Shown here piece by piece: positions 1,741 to 49,798 of a stretch of DNA of 64,000 bases. The translations under genes were made by a program, and so were the position numbers. The stretch is from positions 152,934-216,933 of the forward strand of contig JBBTSZ010000002.1 of assembly GCA_038064495.1 (NCBI GenBank), written 5' to 3'. Source of the stretch: Patescibacteria group bacterium. Lineage in GTDB: Bacteria > Patescibacteriota > Minisyncoccia > Phycocordibacterales > Phycocordibacteraceae. Positions within the stretch are counted from its first letter, which is position 1; the number at the start of each line of letters is the position of its first letter. The notes beneath the pieces are model-generated. The model worked only from the letters and a program-made list of their open reading frames with translations, searched no databases and was not told where the DNA came from.

Positions 1741-3513
1741 ATGACATTTACATTCTTGTTCCTCGGAATTGCCTTTATTGCTGGAATCCTCACGGTACTT
1801 GCTCCCTGTATTCTTCCACTGCTACCAGTTGTGATTGGAGGGTCGGTAACAGGAGACACCAGTTTCAAACGAGCTTTTACGGTTGTGGCGGCGCTTGGGT
1901 TTTCCGTTGTTGCGTTTACGCTTCTCCTAAAAGTAAGTACGGCCTTTATTACAGTTCCGCCACTCTTCTGGCAGTTGCTTTCAGGAGGACTTCTCATTCT
2001 CTTTGGTATTCTCACGACGTTTCCAAATCTGTGGGAGAGTCTCGGTATCACCGCTCTCTTGAACATTAAGGGAAACCGACTCATGGCAACTGGTGACAAG
2101 AAACAGGGCTTCGTTGGTGATTTGCTCGTCGGCATTGCACTTGGTCCCGTGTTTACTTCGTGTAGTCCTACGTACTTCATCGTGCTTGCAACAATTCTTC
2201 CTGCAAACCCGGTCATTGGTTTTATTTATCTTCTGGCCTACACGTTTGGGCTCTCACTCTCTCTACTTCTTATTGCTGTTGTGGGACAACGCATCGTAGA
2301 CCGACTTGATCTAGCAGCAAACCCGCATGGCTGGTTTAAGCGAGGACTTGGCATTCTTTTCATCGTGATTGGTCTTGCGGTAACGTTTGGCATAGACAAA
2401 ATACTTGCCACCTCACTTCCACAGCAAGCCTACGGAATAACGGGTATTGAACAGAATCTCCTTAAGCTAACAAATGGAAAGAATGGGGATGCAACCTCAA
2501 CGCCAACGTTCGTTCCGCTAGGCACGTCAGCTACACCGCTTACGCAAATAGAAAAATCAACTCGATACGAAAAAGCACCAGAATTAGCTTCACCGAATGC
2601 GTATCTCAATACGGGAGGTGCACCGATTACGATCGGAGAGAATCGAGGAAAGAACGTCGTGCTTATAGATTTTTGGACCTACAGTTGTATCAACTGTCAG
2701 CGAACACTTCCGTACCTCAAAGCTTGGAATGAGAAATACAAGGACCAAGGATTGGTTATTATCGGTGTTCATACTCCCGAGTTCTCATTTGAACAAGTAC
2801 AGCAAAACGTAGCTGACGCGCTCAAACGTTTTGGCATAACCTATCCCGTGGTACTCGATAACCAATACAAAACCTGGAATGCATTTGGTAATCAGTATTG
2901 GCCACGCAAATACCTTATTGATATTGATGGGTATATTGTGTACGACCATGCTGGTGAGGGTAACTACGAGGAAACCGAGAAAGCGATCCAGCGAGCACTC
3001 AAAGAGAGGGCAGAACGTCTCGGACAGGACGGAAGCGGTATTCAGGGCACCGCTTCGGTATCGGCTACCGCGCCTACTTCCGCTTCGAGTCCAGAAACGT
3101 ACTTCGGTGCTTCACGAAATGAGTTCTTAGGAAACGGTAAGCCGGCATCGCCAACCAAGCAATCGCTTACGCTCCCGAGTAGTTTTCCCAAGAACAAACT
3201 ATTTCTTGGAGGTGAATGGGATATTCAATTTGAGCACGCCATAGGATCGTCTGGAGCAGATGTGGTCTATACCTATACTGCAAAAGAGGTCTACCTCGTT
3301 GCCAGTAGTGATGCGGGGGCCGAGATAGAAGTCATGCAGGATGGGAAACCACTCGGAACTATTTCTGGAGCAGACGTGAACGCATCGGGCATCGTTCCAG
3401 TAAAGGAAAGTCGTTTATACAAACTCATTAAGAATGATGCTTCAGGAACGCACACACTCAAACTCCACATGAAGAGTGGTAGCGTACGCTTCTATACCTT
3501 CACGTTTGGTTAG
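1741..3513 (+). CDS. DipZ-like fusion protein: CcdA/DsbD-type transmembrane electron transporter + thioredoxin-like domain (CINC) + C-terminal extracytoplasmic domain
   Basis: N-terminal ~230 aa polytopic with paired Cys (CILPLLP.. / TSCSPTYF); redoxin domain FWTYSCINCQRTLPYL; architecture resembles mycobacterial DipZ. Confidence 0.75.
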   Translation: MTFTFLFLGIAFIAGILTVLAPCILPLLPVVIGGSVTGDTSFKRAFTVVAALGFSVVAFTLLLKVSTAFITVPPLFWQLLSGGLLILFGILTTFPNLWESLGITALLNIKGNRLMATGDKKQGFVGDLLVGIALGPVFTSCSPTYFIVLATILPANPVIGFIYLLAYTFGLSLSLLLIAVVGQRIVDRLDLAANPHGWFKRGLGILFIVIGLAVTFGIDKILATSLPQQAYGITGIEQNLLKLTNGKNGDATSTPTFVPLGTSATPLTQIEKSTRYEKAPELASPNAYLNTGGAPITIGENRGKNVVLIDFWTYSCINCQRTLPYLKAWNEKYKDQGLVIIGVHTPEFSFEQVQQNVADALKRFGITYPVVLDNQYKTWNAFGNQYWPRKYLIDIDGYIVYDHAGEGNYEETEKAIQRALKERAERLGQDGSGIQGTASVSATAPTSASSPETYFGASRNEFLGNGKPASPTKQSLTLPSSFPKNKLFLGGEWDIQFEHAIGSSGADVVYTYTAKEVYLVASSDAGAEIEVMQDGKPLGTISGADVNASGIVPVKESRLYKLIKNDASGTHTLKLHMKSGSVRFYTFTFG

Positions 3514-4841
3514 CTCACTTCTCCGAGGTAGGGAAGGGGGAATATCTTCTCACGCTCCTTTCCGGTAAAAAGTGCATCACTTCGTTTCTTGGACATGCTT
3601 CCCATACCGCGACCTCCTGCTGCCGCTTTACCCGCTTCTATCGCCTTCATAGAGGAGCCCAAGTAAACCGAGTGTCGGCCGTAGCGTTCGTTTAGGGTAT
3701 CAACATTTTCAAAGATGCGTGCCGTACCTTCTACCTTACCCGGGTCACTAAATAAATCGAGCTGCACCTCACGCGCCTCGTGGAGTCCGGTAAGGGTTAT
3801 TCCCGTTGCTCTGTACGTGGTGCCTTTACGAAAGACTTTGAGAAAAGAAGGTTTGAGTGCCTCAATAAGTTCGTGAGGGTTACTAGTGGGGTGGGCGAGT
3901 GTAAGCTGTGCTGCGCGGTAGCGGAAGCTTGAAGATTTTAGAAAAAACGAAAACCCCGTGGCGGAGAGTCCATAACGACGAGCCTTTACGCACGCGCCCT
4001 CCATGTTCTTGGAGAGTTGTGAATACAAAAAAGCAGGGTCGCCCGAAGCAGGTGAGAAGGAGCGAGTCTTTTGTATGGAGTGGTAATTGTCCTTAGTTTC
4101 AGTGACAAGTTCTAGTACGGAAACACCGGAAAGCTCCTGCCAGATTTCAAGAGCGGGTTTAGTTACGTGAGCACGCACCCACACCTCATTTTTCTGTACG
4201 AAATCAAAGGCTGTCTTAATACCGAGCTTATTCAAATGCTCGGTTGTGTTTGGACCAATACCCCAAATCTTTCCAATCAGGGTATTTTTGAGGAACGTAT
4301 CTTTCTCCACCAGACGAATTGGTGTGAAGCCATTTGGCTTTGCGTATTTAGAACCCACCTTAGCGAGTACCTTGGTTGGAGCGATTCCTACCGAAAAAGT
4401 TATATCCAGTTCGTTTTGTAGGTCGTTCTTAATCTTCAGAGCAATCTCCTCATAGCCCATATGGTGGAGACGTCTGAGTCCCGTGATGTCTCCAAAGCAT
4501 TCATCAATGCCGTATTCTTCTACTTGAGGAGTGTAGCGTCGCATGATTTCATACATGCGCAGTGAGTAGAGGGTATAGAGCTCGTAGTCAGACGAGAGAA
4601 TAATCGCGTCCGGACAAATCTTGTGCACGTCAGCCAGACGGATACCACGCGAGACGCCACGAGCTTTCGCCTCGTACGTTGCTGCCGACACTATCCCGCG
4701 CTCCGCTCCCGTGACAACTGGCTTTCCGCGGAGCGCCGGGTTACGAGCAACTTCGCACGCGGCGAAGAAACTGTCACCGTCGACGTGTACTATCGCTTTT
4801 GGATAATAATATGAGCGCCCCCAACCCACCTCAGCTACCAT
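3510..4841 (-). CDS. Y-family translesion DNA polymerase (DinB/UmuC type)
   Basis: VHVDGDSFFAACE...GIDECFGDITG...SVGIAPTKVLAKVGS are Y-family palm/finger motifs; lies immediately downstream of lexA on the same strand. Confidence 0.8.
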   Translation of the reverse strand: MVAEVGWGRSYYYPKAIVHVDGDSFFAACEVARNPALRGKPVVTGAERGIVSAATYEAKARGVSRGIRLADVHKICPDAIILSSDYELYTLYSLRMYEIMRRYTPQVEEYGIDECFGDITGLRRLHHMGYEEIALKIKNDLQNELDITFSVGIAPTKVLAKVGSKYAKPNGFTPIRLVEKDTFLKNTLIGKIWGIGPNTTEHLNKLGIKTAFDFVQKNEVWVRAHVTKPALEIWQELSGVSVLELVTETKDNYHSIQKTRSFSPASGDPAFLYSQLSKNMEGACVKARRYGLSATGFSFFLKSSSFRYRAAQLTLAHPTSNPHELIEALKPSFLKVFRKGTTYRATGITLTGLHEAREVQLDLFSDPGKVEGTARIFENVDTLNERYGRHSVYLGSSMKAIEAGKAAAGGRGMGSMSKKRSDALFTGKEREKIFPLPYLGEVS

Positions 4842-4992
4842 AGGCGCTTTGCTCGTTCGGCATATTTCTCGAAAGGACCGGAATGATTCTCTGCTGAGAA
4901 TCTTCCTCCTGCTCGGCTCGTCAGCCTGCGCAGAGCCCTTTCTCGTAACATCCCTTCACTCGCATGGAATGTGCCAATCATATGCGTTCCCA

Positions 4993-5559
4993 CTAGTATT
5001 TGCGGACAACGCCAGTAACCACCGCCTCAATCGTCAGATTTCCTTTTGGATACATAGGCTTGAAGGCAGCGTTCGCGGGTTCAAGGTAATAATGTTCACC
5101 TGATTTGCGGAGATACTTCATCGTGTATTCGCCTTCAACAGACGCGATAACAATTTGTCCGGGCTTATAGGTAGAGCGACGCTCAACGATAACGAGGTCT
5201 CCGGGACAGATGCCGGCATCAATCATGCTTTCCCCTTTTACTTTGAGAATGTAACTACTCTCTTTGTTTGGCGTGAGGTATTCGTCAAAGTCCATGACAT
5301 CAAGCAGCTCTTCTTCAGCAGCGGAAGGGAAGCCGGCCTCAACCAGACCAAGAAGGGGAACACCAGAAAGGGCACGCCCCGGCGCAAGTCGTCCGAGCTT
5401 ATCTTTAATGAGAATGCCGTCTTCAACGAGTTTGTTAATAAGTTTGTAGACCGAGTTTTTAGAAGCAAGACCAGTCGCTGACATGATTTCCTTATAGCCC
5501 GGCATTCGCTTATGGCGCTCGTAGAAGCCAATAATCTTTCGTTTGTAGGAGTCGTACAT
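4993..5559 (-). CDS. lexA: LexA repressor (winged-helix + S24 peptidase)
   Basis: N-terminal wHTH; C-terminal S24 domain with GESM (Ser) and K dyad, VIVERR...GQIVIA motif. Confidence 0.85.
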   Translation of the reverse strand: MYDSYKRKIIGFYERHKRMPGYKEIMSATGLASKNSVYKLINKLVEDGILIKDKLGRLAPGRALSGVPLLGLVEAGFPSAAEEELLDVMDFDEYLTPNKESSYILKVKGESMIDAGICPGDLVIVERRSTYKPGQIVIASVEGEYTMKYLRKSGEHYYLEPANAAFKPMYPKGNLTIEAVVTGVVRKY

Positions 5560-5565
5560 TCCTAC

Positions 5566-5595
5566 AGCATAGGTGAACTATGGTTCACCCGTCAA
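5566..5595 (-). promoter_or_regulatory. lexA promoter (-35 TTGACG, -10 TATGCT) with the SOS box in the spacer; near-leaderless
   Basis: On the minus strand: TTGACG-N18-TATGCT, then ATG 6 nt later; the spacer is the palindrome GGTGAACTATGGTTCACC. Confidence 0.5.
5572..5589. promoter_or_regulatory. LexA operator (GAAC-N4-GTTC Cheo-box type), perfect 18-bp palindrome GGTGAACTATGGTTCACC
   Basis: Seen directly, 13 nt upstream of the lexA start codon; matches the Gram-positive-type SOS box consensus GAAC-N4-GTTC. Confidence 0.65.
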
Positions 5596-5671
5596 GCCTT
5601 ACCGAAGAACAACCACGATCATCTTTTTGATGCTATACATAAAAGCGGAATCTTGGGACAAGGAGAATGCA

Positions 5672-6025
5672 ATGCACATTGTTGAAAGCGGAGAACCAGA
5701 CCTTACGGCTGTAGCTCAGGAAATTATGAAGCCTTTACTCGGTTGGCTGGAAAGCATCAACTGTACTCCAGCCAGGTTTAACGAAGTCATGCGCAGTGAA
5801 GAGTATTCTCATGACTCACGATTGACCTCACTCGGCATCACTCAGACGCAATTCGAAGAGGGTATAGAGACTATCCAGTCTCTCCATCTTTATGCCTTGA
5901 TACTCGGCATAAAGAAAGAAGAACTCTGGGCTGGTTTTGAAACCCACCAGTATTTTGCGCCTCGATGGCTCATCGAGAATGTCGAGAACGCTATGCGAGA
6001 TAATTTTGCTGGCAGTTGCGGCTGA
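5672..6025 (+). CDS. hypothetical protein, divergent from lexA and sharing the SOS-box region
   Basis: ATG at 5672 preceded by AGGAG (5661-5665); 117 aa with no recognisable motif; the longer ORF from 5573 would overlap the operator. Confidence 0.5.
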   Translation: MHIVESGEPDLTAVAQEIMKPLLGWLESINCTPARFNEVMRSEEYSHDSRLTSLGITQTQFEEGIETIQSLHLYALILGIKKEELWAGFETHQYFAPRWLIENVENAMRDNFAGSCG

Positions 6026-6047: not shown

Positions 6048-6085
6048 AAAAGAATCGCCCCGGCACAAAGACGGGGCGATTTTCT
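6048..6085. terminator. bidirectional intrinsic terminator AATCGCCCCG...CGGGGCGATTTT between convergent genes
   Basis: GC hairpin with an A-tract before and a T-tract after. Confidence 0.6.
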
Positions 6086-6096
6086 TGGACGAACGG

Positions 6097-7587
6097 TTAC
6101 GTGTCCAAGAAGTGGTTGAAGATAGATGTTTCCTGCTGGAGCAAATGGGAAGGCCTGAATAGGTTATTCCACTCGTTCATGACCGATTCATCCTTGAAGA
6201 GATCCTTCAACAAAAGATTCCAGGGAATGATGTCATCCACCGACGCCTGAAGCGAATCAACAGGATACAACAAGCCAGAGCTGATAATATCCCGAAGGTT
6301 TGTGCTCGTAGGCACAGTTGGAACGAGCTCAAAGGACGTCAGGAACGCATCAGCCTTTTCAAGACTCTCTGCGCGTGCTTCCCGAAGTTCTTGCCGAGCA
6401 GGTCCCGGTTCAAACGCGCAGAAGCTTGCCAGCTGAACGATTCGATAGGCTTCGTTTGCAGGCAGAGCGCGCTCGGCGAGCTTTCCCGCAAGGAAGTTTT
6501 TCGCTTCGTCCGATGCATAGGTGCAACGGCTTGCTTGGATTTCTTCCAGCATATTGTCCGGATAGACCACCAACTTGGTGAGAACTTCGGTCATCACGTT
6601 GAGCATGCGCAGAGTGATATGGAACAGGTCAGGCCAGTCTACACGCTCCACACAGGATTGCTCAATCGCGCGAGCTTCCCATGTTTGAATCCCCGCAACA
6701 ATGGAAGCGACACGTCCACGCGCAAGGAGCACCATACCTCTCATCTGTTCCGTACGGATGGTGTTTTTCTTGTGTGGCATTGCAGAGGAACCTTTTTGGA
6801 GTTTTCCAAAGGGTTCATGCCATAACGGTTGTCCGCTTCTCGCTCCGAGCCGAATATCCAGTGCTATTTTGCCAAGAGTCTCGCACAGTACCTGAAGGCT
6901 CTGCGCGAGCGGAGCGTAGATGCTCCGCGGCATGATCTGTGTTGCGCCGACATACGCAGAGAGACCGAGGATGTTGAGTGCCTCTTTTTCAATTCTCGGG
7001 GTGAGACCACCGCCATAATTGCCGATCGCGCCTGAAAGTCGTGATTGCATACAATAGCCGACGCCGACTTTCAGTTGGTCACGAGCGAGCTGTAAGTCGG
7101 CAACGTAGGTGAGCAGGCGTCCACCAAAGGTGCGTAACTTTGCAGCTTGTCCGTGTGTGCGCTCAAGGAATATCGTGTATCGATAGTCTTTCGCCATCTT
7201 TTCAAGACTCTCGAGAAGTGCCGAAAGTTCATTATCGACATATTCGTGCGATTCACGTAGCGCAATGGCGAATGCCGCTTCTTCCGTGTCGTAGCTCGTC
7301 ATATCCTTATGAAACTCCGACTGGAGCTCGTTTGGAATGAAGCGTTGACGCTCTTCAAGGAAGGCGTTCAGGTCATGGTGGAGAACGCGATCGCGTTCGA
7401 GCCACCAGGCAACGTCTGGCGCATTGTTTGCGAGCGCCAGCTCAATCTGGTTGTAGACCGACGCGTCGGTAAGTTTCAGATTGACGCGTGCCTTGATAAC
7501 AGCAAGTTCAACCCGTTCCCAACGAAGGAGCTTTTCAGCATCGCTCCAGAGATAATCGATTTCCGGGTTTGAATACCGAGGAATCAT
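6097..7587 (-). CDS. purB: adenylosuccinate lyase, with a ~50 aa C-terminal extension
   Basis: Fumarate-lyase signature GSSAMPHKKNTIRTE; overall PurB-like. Confidence 0.85.
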   Translation of the reverse strand: MIPRYSNPEIDYLWSDAEKLLRWERVELAVIKARVNLKLTDASVYNQIELALANNAPDVAWWLERDRVLHHDLNAFLEERQRFIPNELQSEFHKDMTSYDTEEAAFAIALRESHEYVDNELSALLESLEKMAKDYRYTIFLERTHGQAAKLRTFGGRLLTYVADLQLARDQLKVGVGYCMQSRLSGAIGNYGGGLTPRIEKEALNILGLSAYVGATQIMPRSIYAPLAQSLQVLCETLGKIALDIRLGARSGQPLWHEPFGKLQKGSSAMPHKKNTIRTEQMRGMVLLARGRVASIVAGIQTWEARAIEQSCVERVDWPDLFHITLRMLNVMTEVLTKLVVYPDNMLEEIQASRCTYASDEAKNFLAGKLAERALPANEAYRIVQLASFCAFEPGPARQELREARAESLEKADAFLTSFELVPTVPTSTNLRDIISSGLLYPVDSLQASVDDIIPWNLLLKDLFKDESVMNEWNNLFRPSHLLQQETSIFNHFLDT

Positions 7588-39651: not shown

Positions 39652-39801
39652 TCAGGCGCCTGCCTGATTTTCCGAACGATCGTTCGCCTTGTTTGCTGCG
39701 CGCTTCTTGCTGGCAGCGACGGCGAGGCCACCGATGGCCACCGCGCCGATAAGTGCGACACCGACCGTCTTCTTGCTTGGCATGTGAGGCTTAACCATCA
39801 T
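39652..39801 (-). CDS. small single-TM protein (49 aa)
   Basis: AAGGGAG 9 nt upstream of ATGATG (39801); own terminator; hydrophobic core followed by KKR. Confidence 0.35.
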   Translation of the reverse strand: MMVKPHMPSKKTVGVALIGAVAIGGLAVAASKKRAANKANDRSENQAGA

Positions 39802-49479: not shown

Positions 49480-49528
49480 CGTTATCCACAATGCCTTGTG
49501 CTATACTCTCGAAACATAATTTACGTAT

Positions 49529-49798
49529 ATGGAACAGAAGCCCGTCACAATTTACACCACCCCAACCTGTCATTTTTGCCAGATGAGCAAGGAATTCTTC
49601 AAGGCAAATAATGTTGCCTACACCGAGTACAACGTTGCTGCCGACGCTGAGAAGCGCGCTGAGATGATTGAAAAGAGTGGTCAGCGCGGTGTACCGGTCA
49701 TCTACATTGGAGACGAGATGGTCATCGGTTTTGATAAAAAGCGTTTTGATGAACTGCTTGGTCTTGGAAGTGCACCCACTGCAACCGAAGTAGCATAG
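49529..49798 (+). CDS. glutaredoxin-like protein (NrdH/YruB type, CHFC)
   Basis: VTIYTTPTCHFCQMSKEFF...GQRGVPVIYIGDEMVIGF. Confidence 0.8.
   Translation: MEQKPVTIYTTPTCHFCQMSKEFFKANNVAYTEYNVAADAEKRAEMIEKSGQRGVPVIYIGDEMVIGFDKKRFDELLGLGSAPTATEVA

Follow-up and report, generated by a model that had tools for sequence, protein, structure and literature searches.

The 64-kb stretch of DNA analyzed here (the window) can be assigned to a Kaiserbacteria-like member of the Paceibacteria within the Candidate Phyla Radiation (CPR), and it carries on its minus strand a lexA gene followed by polY, a gene for a translesion DNA polymerase. We consider it about 75% probable that this region is a self-repressed SOS cassette, in which lexA and then the polymerase gene are read from a leaderless mRNA, and to which the divergent neighbouring gene for a 117-aa protein is unrelated. 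Its features are those of an ordinary SOS system in a little-studied group. The comparisons below use related loci from genome scans, numbered with the prefix L, which are mostly lexA loci (L081, L084, and L087 are loci of homologues of the 117-aa gene). The genome scan returned 58 Paceibacteria-type lexA loci, and 80 related lexA loci were checked for gene neighbourhood. All negative results given for the window cover this 64-kb stretch only. The bacterium is an uncultured one from groundwater, and DNA identical to the window is also contained in assemblies from Hainich groundwater.

The lexA gene (4993–5559, minus strand) encodes a protein of 188 aa. This protein passes the cutoff of the LexA equivalog model TIGR00498 (NCBIfam; COG1974) with 118.4 bits against 110.95, its residues 15–187 matching positions 21–201 of the model, and its C-terminal domain matches Pfam Peptidase_S24 (PF00717) at 1.5e-26. 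Residues 12–187 align with solved LexA structures. The Ala75–Gly76 pair, Ser111, and Lys148 are kept and correspond in the alignment to A84–G85, S119, and K156 of Escherichia coli LexA. Searches returned 2996 homologues, the closest of which are 70–91% identical and named as LexA of Candidatus Paceibacterota or Kaiserbacteria, which points to the CPR (Patescibacteria) origin of the window. The sequence M..YK.KII at the N-terminus is conserved as protein across relatives, and the ATG at 5559 is therefore the true start. In a neighbor-joining tree of this short protein, rooted at the midpoint, the window LexA falls inside a polymerase-linked clade of Paceibacteria LexA proteins, apart from a second clade that is linked to a small gene.

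Directly upstream of lexA lies a sigma-70-type promoter with an operator in its spacer. Read along the minus strand, it consists of a −35 hexamer TTGACG (5595–5590), the operator GGTGAACCATAGTTCACC (5589–5572), a −10 hexamer TATGCT (5571–5566), the six nucleotides GTAGGA (5565–5560), and the lexA ATG at 5559. A promoter scan recovered the two hexamers with their 18-nt spacing as 9 of 12 matches to consensus, and the operator, present on both strands (GGTGAACTATGGTTCACC at 5572–5589; GGTGAAC-TATG-GTTCACC), fills this spacer completely. The original prediction had located the polymerase at 3510–4841 on the same strand as lexA, a divergent open reading frame (ORF) at 5672–6025 (plus strand), and the promoter elements exactly where we find them. 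It had also called the operator a perfect palindrome, which applies to the two inverted 7-nt arms, GGTGAAC and GTTCACC, but not to the central TATG, which is not self-complementary. Inverted repeats of this size are common: the window contains 21 with a 7-N4-7 layout against 4.0 expected in shuffles, most of them resembling terminator hairpins, and the bare GAAC-N4-GTTC core occurs twice against 1.36 expected. The significance of the site must therefore rest on its sequence identity, position, and conservation.

These properties single the site out. On a symmetrised operator matrix that was trained on 49 operators of other genomes, with the window site excluded, it scores 26.9 bits, above the training median of 25.1, while the next best site in the remainder of the window reaches 6.7 bits and the mean shuffle maximum is 10.1. 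An operator of the GTGAAC- or TAGAAC-N4 type lies within 420 nt upstream of lexA in 49 of the 58 related loci. The closest arrangements (L001–L018, L024, and L034) repeat that of the window, with TTGACn, (G)GTGAAC-N4-GTTCAC(C), TATACT, 6–7 nt, and the ATG; across relatives, TTGACn or TTGCAG directly precedes the operator, and TATACT or TATAAT occupies the place of the −10 hexamer. In L019–L022 and L057 a TAGAAC- or TAGTAC-type variant of the operator is found at the same position, and in the more distant L025–L056 a small gene lies between the same promoter–operator module and lexA. The earlier proposal of a LexA operator inside the lexA promoter is thus borne out by the passed LexA equivalog model and by an order of −35, operator, and −10 that is conserved across the class. 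Because of the matrix score and the phylogenetic footprint across foreign sites, there is strong comparative evidence that 5572–5589 is a LexA operator and that lexA is autoregulated. The scan for further boxes that the original prediction had suggested, run over the 64 kb only, made the lexA operator stand out and gave no second credible site. The other GAAC-N4-GTTC match, at 39674 (CGAACGATCGTTCG, 39672–39687), scores 2.4 bits on the operator matrix and is probably a chance occurrence; it falls into a small ORF of the minus strand (MMVKPHMPSKKTVGVALIGAVAIGGLAVAASKKRAANKANDRSENQAGA), within the 3′ end of that ORF, which lies downstream of groEL.

One related locus shows a disrupted form of the promoter region. 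At about 3890–4000 of L009, the promoter, the operator, and a remnant of a lexA start (ATGTAC) are followed by about 90 extra nucleotides before a lexA gene that starts with GTG. This arrangement looks like an insertion or duplication that has parted a leaderless promoter from its gene.

The distance between operator and start codon bears on how the message begins. From the end of the operator to the lexA ATG there are 13 nt in 13 loci, including the window, and 14 nt in three, so that the −10 hexamer sits 6–7 nt from the start codon. No Shine–Dalgarno sequence is found at functional spacing before the lexA ATG, and the sequence leaves no room for one. The leaderless or nearly leaderless transcript proposed for lexA fits this sequence geometry, with its 6-nt gap and a distance that is fixed in 16 loci. 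Other genes of the window have starts of the same kind. A TANNNT hexamer lies 5–9 nt before the start in 13 of 49 long window ORFs, compared with 5.7% of all ATG triplets (P ~3e-6), and examples of starts with a −10-like hexamer are found at 1741, 12378, 14168, 19807, 41767, 53940, 59039, and 61573. Shine–Dalgarno-like motifs are not enriched in the window (11 of 52 starts vs 17.6% at random positions). Leaderless translation thus seems, by these counts, to be common in this CPR genome. The lexA gene of Mycobacterium tuberculosis, which to our knowledge has no polymerase gene downstream, offers a parallel. It is leaderless by experiment, its translational start being the transcriptional start, and it has an SOS box at its promoter (PMC2897130); for the window, a leaderless message is predicted from the conserved 6-nt gap between −10 and ATG. 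A leaderless lexA is thus plausible, but it would be no exception in this genome and has a precedent among lexA genes.

It is unlikely that lexA is instead transcribed with a 5′ leader from an upstream or alternative promoter and translated from a short-spaced ribosome-binding site formed by the purine-rich bases before its ATG (AGGA in the window, GGAG in several relatives). GGAG or GAGG does occur 1–3 nt before the lexA ATG in L001, L002, L007, and L010, and leaders of 20–45 nt are present in L024, in L012, and at the promoters linked to the small gene. However, a spacing of 0–3 nt at lexA is too short for Shine–Dalgarno function, and −35, operator, and −10 are conserved directly upstream of lexA at a fixed distance to the ATG. 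The pattern of many −10-adjacent starts and no Shine–Dalgarno enrichment in the window also favors a leaderless message.

The second gene of the cassette, polY (3510–4841, minus strand), encodes a DinB-like Y-family translesion DNA polymerase of 443 aa. It matches the Pfam families IMS (PF00817, 5.5e-44), IMS_C (PF11799, 1e-14), and IMS_HHH. Its best NCBIfam hits are polymerase IV models, with 213.3 bits against a cutoff of 371, and all ten models that match remain below their cutoffs; the closest solved structures are likewise DNA polymerase IV entries (7yll, 4.1e-35; 4ir1). In the alignment with 7yll, the motifs VHVDGDSFF (D21, D23) and GIDE (D113, E114) match its catalytic motifs. By sequence and structure alignment, the protein is thus a Y-family polymerase with intact catalytic residues, unlike ImuB, and an equivalog of neither DinB nor UmuC. 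In DinB, the C-terminal QLVLGL is a clamp-binding peptide. By analogy, the C-terminal ...LPxLGEV motif of the window polymerase, which is conserved in 22 relatives, may serve the same purpose. Two other identities were considered and rejected. An imuA–imuB–dnaE2 cassette does not fit the kept catalytic residues, and the genes on the flanks encode a DsbD/thioredoxin-like protein, the 117-aa ORF, and purB, with neither imuA nor dnaE2 among them. A UmuC (umuDC) identity is contradicted by a score of 158.7 bits on the UmuC model, far under its cutoff of 431.

Synteny joins the two genes. Nearly all relatives whose LexA is at least 62% identical have the polymerase gene behind lexA, and in about 14 relatives the lexA stop and the polymerase start are 2–7 nt apart or overlap, which is a signature of co-transcription and translational coupling. 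Both observations support the lexA–polymerase operon that had been proposed for the window. It is very improbable that the pair belongs to a mobile mutagenesis cassette, such as a prophage or an integrative element, and not to the chromosomal core. The genes flanking lexA and polY do differ among relatives, and the spacer between the two is prone to insertions, among them GIY-YIG genes, an ORF that by sequence reading looks like PemK/MazF, and long palindromic elements. On the other hand, no integrase, transposase, or phage gene adjoins the pair in the window, where it is surrounded by genes with housekeeping functions (purB and those for an RND pump and a DsbD-like protein). In addition, the pair occurs throughout the bacterial class, and protein identity tracks lineage.

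From protein identities, catalytic residues, the conserved operator and promoter, and synteny, we infer the following course of regulation. A LexA dimer bound to the operator would fill the −35/−10 spacer and exclude RNA polymerase. After DNA damage, RecA-stimulated self-cleavage of LexA at Ala75–Gly76, by the Ser111/Lys148 dyad, would free the promoter, and a transcript would begin at or beside the A of the lexA ATG. This leaderless mRNA is predicted to run through a spacer of 151 nt, with a candidate micro-ORF that overlaps both neighbours, into polY. The downstream cistrons would probably be translated by coupling, since they lack Shine–Dalgarno sequences and overlap their upstream neighbours (TAGTG and ATGGTAG). 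LexA and the translesion polymerase would increase together, and LexA would then close the loop again.

The spacer (4842–4992, minus strand) is predicted to fold into a long, imperfect hairpin, which has GATTCTC-AGCA-GAGAATC at its tip and lacks a U-tract. Its predicted RNA fold of −60.5 kcal/mol (z = −4.07) is matched in stability by none of 200 shuffles, and a separate recomputation gave z = −3.55. The consensus scan and the operator matrix detected no minus-strand promoter-like site, terminator-like site, or LexA box in the window spacer. Rfam gave no match in window positions 4700–5750 at E ≤ 1, and with the gathering threshold none of six related loci had one. Folded spacers are also present in L014 (z −4.7) and L006 (z −2.6). 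A hairpin of about 125 nt is common to the spacers of L004 and L006; its stem shows compensatory changes, its tip is CGTAC...GTACG, and it might either have a regulatory role or be a mobile element of palindromic form. The structure in the window spacer may adjust how strongly the polymerase is expressed, or it may be left over from palindromic insertions, which are frequent in this spacer. At about 1100–1370 of L021, a GIY-YIG gene is inserted between lexA and polY with the inverted repeats GTAGTGAAATTTCAAC ... GTTGAAATTCTACTAC on its flanks, which suggests a mobile element. Stand-alone small GIY-YIG nuclease genes are found both there and in the window itself, at 830–1099 on the plus strand inside ORF 710–1099 (Pfam 2.8e-16 in the window and 2.4e-18 in L021).

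Within the spacer, the ORF list contains a candidate micro-ORF (4835–4993, minus strand) of 52 codons from a GTG, with an internal ATG at 4981. Its GTG overlaps the lexA stop codon (TAGTG), and its own stop codon overlaps the polY start (ATGGTAG). The window falls into a subgroup in which the distance between lexA and polY is longer. In the closest polY relatives (L002–L006 and L091–L093), the spacer always holds a micro-ORF of 35–73 aa with the sequence MTT..LYQLASFERVLRR.., whose differences fall at third codon positions and are synonymous, and which overlaps the polY start in L003 and L005. A metagenome scan for this micro-ORF recovered only three further loci, all of them between lexA and polY. 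The window micro-ORF has no Pfam match and is very divergent, having in common with the versions of the relatives only M1 and ER.LRR, so that its homology to them is tentative.

The divergent gene on the other side of the operator (5672–6025, plus strand) had been put forward as an SOS gene that shares this site with lexA. Its product, a 117-aa all-helical protein, belongs to a very rare family with 2 matches among 5.8 billion proteins and 5 clusters among 1.84 billion representatives. Six family members share 43–57% identity with 18 invariant columns, and the ORF is, by this conservation, a real gene. As originally stated, the protein has no recognizable motif: there is no Pfam, NCBIfam, or PHROG match. 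The proposed check by structure and profile methods gave a helical model (AlphaFold2, pLDDT 83.8, seven helices) but no significant fold match. Foldseek searches with the model against PDB and BFVD had best E-values of 0.5–0.65, with helix–turn–helix proteins among the noise, and PDB sequence and profile searches gave only E-values of at least 0.08, including the N-terminal domain of lambda cI at E 0.17 (profile). As helix–turn–helix proteins recur among these non-significant matches, an XRE/Cro-like core is only a hint.

The 117-aa gene comes with expression signals of its own. A predicted extended −10 element, TGCTATACA, lies at 5631–5639 on the plus strand, and four members of the family, namely those of the window, L081 (TGCTATAAG), L084 (TGTTATAAA), and L087 (TGATATAAG), have the motif TGnTATAnn at 27–32 nt upstream of the ATG. 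The consensus promoter scan missed this element because there is no −35 hexamer. A Shine–Dalgarno sequence, AAGGAG (5660–5665, plus strand), stands 6 nt before the ATG, and homologues have GGAG or GGAGG before their starts. Downstream, the hairpin AATCGCCCC-N11-GGGGCGATT with a T-run (6053–6086) is likely a bidirectional terminator that separates the 117-aa gene from purB (6097–7587; TIGR00928, 2.3e-75, 254 bits, cutoff 326.2), which converges on it, and a scan reported a terminator-like site on the minus strand at 6073–6056. Both genes lie in the window between lexA and an RND-pump gene. The RND-pump gene is found upstream of lexA at a distance of 51 nt in L001, 372 nt in L004, and 355 nt in L005, which argues that purB and the 117-aa gene are a lineage-specific insertion.

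That LexA also represses the divergent gene from the shared operator, making it a new SOS gene, is doubtful and in our estimate has only a slim chance of being correct. There are precedents for such an arrangement: yneA and chiZ are SOS genes divergent beside lexA, and ddrR is placed likewise beside umuDAb. The operator falls within the intergenic region of 112 nt, at a distance of 83 nt from the ATG (5672), and the promoters of lexA and the 117-aa gene, which stand back to back with only about 35 nt between them, could disturb one another. In Acinetobacter, ddrR is a divergent small gene that is co-regulated with the repressor (PMC7273328); unlike ddrR, the 117-aa gene is not conserved with the cassette, being absent from all 80 related lexA loci. 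The five loci of its homologues have no lexA neighbour and no GAAC-N4-GTTC box (up to one mismatch) within 200 nt upstream, and their contexts are unrelated (SnoaL_5, Fic, a tRNA synthetase, and DUF4012). The operator is centered at about −66 of the predicted promoter of the 117-aa gene, outside the core promoter and the usual positions of repression, and the protein lacks the transmembrane or LysM features of division inhibitors of the YneA/ChiZ type. The 117-aa gene is thus probably not part of the SOS cassette; it would be a lineage-specific insertion that is unrelated to it and that brings an extended −10 promoter, a ribosome-binding site, and a terminator of its own. The proposal of a shared operator is not supported, given the gene's own promoter, the missing linkage and boxes, and its absence from related loci. 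As a separate observation, a repeat of about 30 nt (GTTCTAAC.T.GTCCCAC.C.GCCAGCA) occurs twice at 500–833 of L081, downstream of the 115-aa homologue there, and each copy is followed by a terminator-like hairpin.

With the divergent gene set aside, the cassette can be compared with known systems. The Cheo-type SOS box of Gram-positive LexA has a GAAC-N4-GTTC core. Gram-positive LexA (DinR) belongs to the same family as the window protein, with an S24 domain, an Ala–Gly site, a Ser/Lys dyad, and a winged helix–turn–helix, which in the window protein is putative; its box also has the same 4-N4-4 inverted core, and it is autoregulated via a box in the lexA promoter. The operators differ in their flanks, which are GT...AC in most Paceibacteria (GTGAAC-N4-GTTCAC) and TA...TA in a subclade, compared with CGAAC...GTTCG in the Cheo type. 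Further differences from the Gram-positive systems are the small size of the protein (188 aa), the place of lexA at the head of an operon that includes a polymerase, and a message that is predicted to be leaderless. For CPR bacteria, the SOS network of Patescibacteria with its LexA motif and regulon was reportedly described by Sanchez-Osuna, Barbe and Erill (2017, Environ Microbiol). A later paper of the same group, which reviews the LexA regulons of Firmicutes and Actinobacteria, cites this Patescibacteria study, in the passage concerned, among LexA cases with a direct-repeat motif (PMC7739468).

Cassettes of comparable layout are known from other groups. In the HdiR–umuC system of Streptococcaceae and with UmuDAb of Acinetobacter, a self-cleaving S24 repressor is likewise encoded with, and represses, a Y-family polymerase (PMC8565304; PMC11332147; PMC7273328; PMC4807011). 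HdiR is phage cI-like and UmuDAb is derived from UmuD, whereas the window protein, judged by the NCBIfam cutoff, is a genuine LexA, and the polymerase of those systems is UmuC, whereas it is DinB-like here. In the umuDC operon of E. coli (Pol V), a LexA-controlled S24 gene also directly precedes a gene for a Y-family polymerase and is translationally coupled to it. However, UmuD lacks a DNA-binding domain and does not act as the repressor, and the window polymerase, as its score on the UmuC model indicates, is far from UmuC. Mechanistically, the region represents an autoregulated LexA promoter of the classic kind, whose operator core is of the Gram-positive type, and, as in minimal SOS networks, a translesion polymerase is joined to it. 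The picture gained by sequence comparison is that the DNA-damage response of a genome-reduced CPR bacterium would be wired through a single self-repressed, leaderless lexA–polymerase operon, which agrees with the view that the SOS response has the control of error-prone polymerases at its core (PMC7739468, PMC8565304). With the operator matrix, the regulon can be delimited in complete genomes of Paceibacteria, and the 117-aa gene is removed as a false lead.

Several points weigh against this interpretation. The Pfam family LexA_DNA_bind has no match in the LexA N-terminus at E ≤ 0.01; homology of this part is instead indicated by the full-length match to TIGR00498 and by alignments to solved LexA structures, in which residues 12–64 align with the N-terminal domains of 3k2z (residues 17 onward) and 7b5g. 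With TATGCT, the window has a weaker −10 hexamer than its relatives, which have TATACT. The lexA–polY spacer is structured and 151 nt long, compared with only 2–7 nt in many relatives, and its hairpin may attenuate or process the message, so that polymerase expression would not simply follow lexA. Finally, at least two related genomes contain two LexA paralogues, and the copy in the window may not be the global SOS regulator.

The last point leads to an alternative that we regard as possible, though with fairly low odds, namely that the LexA-like protein is a polymerase-dedicated paralogue, which controls only its own operon and whose cleaved S24 fragment might serve the polymerase as UmuD′ serves UmuC. 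Functionally, such a protein would, with the same modest likelihood, resemble UmuDAb of Acinetobacter or the streptococcal HdiR. L016 (4001–6723) and L056 (4001–4561 and 6570–8361) each encode two lexA genes, one leaderless and linked to polY, the other linked to a small gene for a protein of 63–70 aa, and the neighbor-joining tree separates the corresponding clades. The C-terminal domain of the window LexA scores 99 bits on a UmuD subfamily model (cutoff 110) and matches a PHROG 'UmuD-like' family at 4.9e-30, the tight coupling of lexA and polY is like that of umuDC, and no other LexA box is present in the 64 kb. Minimal networks of an S24 repressor and a polymerase are, moreover, known (PMC8565304; PMC11332147, PMC7273328). 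Against a dedicated paralogue, the protein is above the LexA equivalog cutoff and below that of UmuD, and the polymerase is nearer to DinB, which needs no UmuD′, than to UmuC (213 vs 159 bits). The operators of the two paralogues have GTGAAC and TAGAAC flanks in L056, but in L016 both promoters have the GTGAAC type, so that the regulons would not be insulated. The tree, moreover, is a midpoint-rooted one of a short protein, and the search for a second lexA in this genome covered 64 kb.

Some by-products of the analysis are of possible interest and leave the verdict on the SOS cassette unaffected: the two LexA lineages, the small partner gene, a DnaA-box-like motif, and the chain from lexA through the micro-ORF to polY. 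The partner gene encodes a 63–70 aa protein (MSKQNLEKVLRRELEVLNDQIDEKIIRGLSY.REA.RHK..L..., with a hydrophobic ...SWF.RSFS.. tail) that is conserved, co-located with lexA, and placed behind a LexA-operator promoter. It lies just upstream of lexA in L025, L028, L030, L033, L035–L039, L041–L046, and L048–L056, and it is also found at 5957–6154 of L016 and, downstream of lexA, at 4587–4745 of L034. It belongs to no Pfam family and is not present in the 64-kb window. The protein may be an SOS effector.

The DnaA-box-like motif, TTATCCACA, TTTTCCACA, or TTATCCCCA, occurs 0–17 nt upstream of the −35 hexamer of lexA promoters (L002–L056). It stands at a fixed place in 15 of 25 polymerase-linked operator loci compared with a background of 3% (P ~6e-17, uncorrected for relatedness), and it is present in most loci linked to the small gene, with variable spacing to the −35. 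At the lexA promoter of the window it is absent. A broad reading of these observations is speculative and, taken as a whole, unlikely: two Paceibacteria LexA lineages would share one promoter design (TTATCCACA, −35, GTGAAC-N4-GTTCAC, −10), one lineage being co-transcribed with the 63–70 aa protein and the other, that of the window, being leaderless and coupled to the DinB-like polymerase. The polymerase-linked LexA would then act as both a repressor and a UmuD-like accessory, its cleaved C-terminal fragment activating or escorting the polymerase, and DnaA would co-regulate the SOS promoter, with the box having been lost in the window genome. If true, co-regulation by DnaA would tie mutagenesis to replication status. 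A role of the DnaA-like box as a general promoter element was rejected, as TTWTCCACA (up to one mismatch) occurs 25 times in the window against 28 expected and is not enriched. A perfect copy of the motif is found in the window at 49482–49490, just upstream of the extended −10 element TGCTATACT, and the ORF behind this element, starting at 49531, encodes a glutaredoxin-type protein that is possibly NrdH-like.

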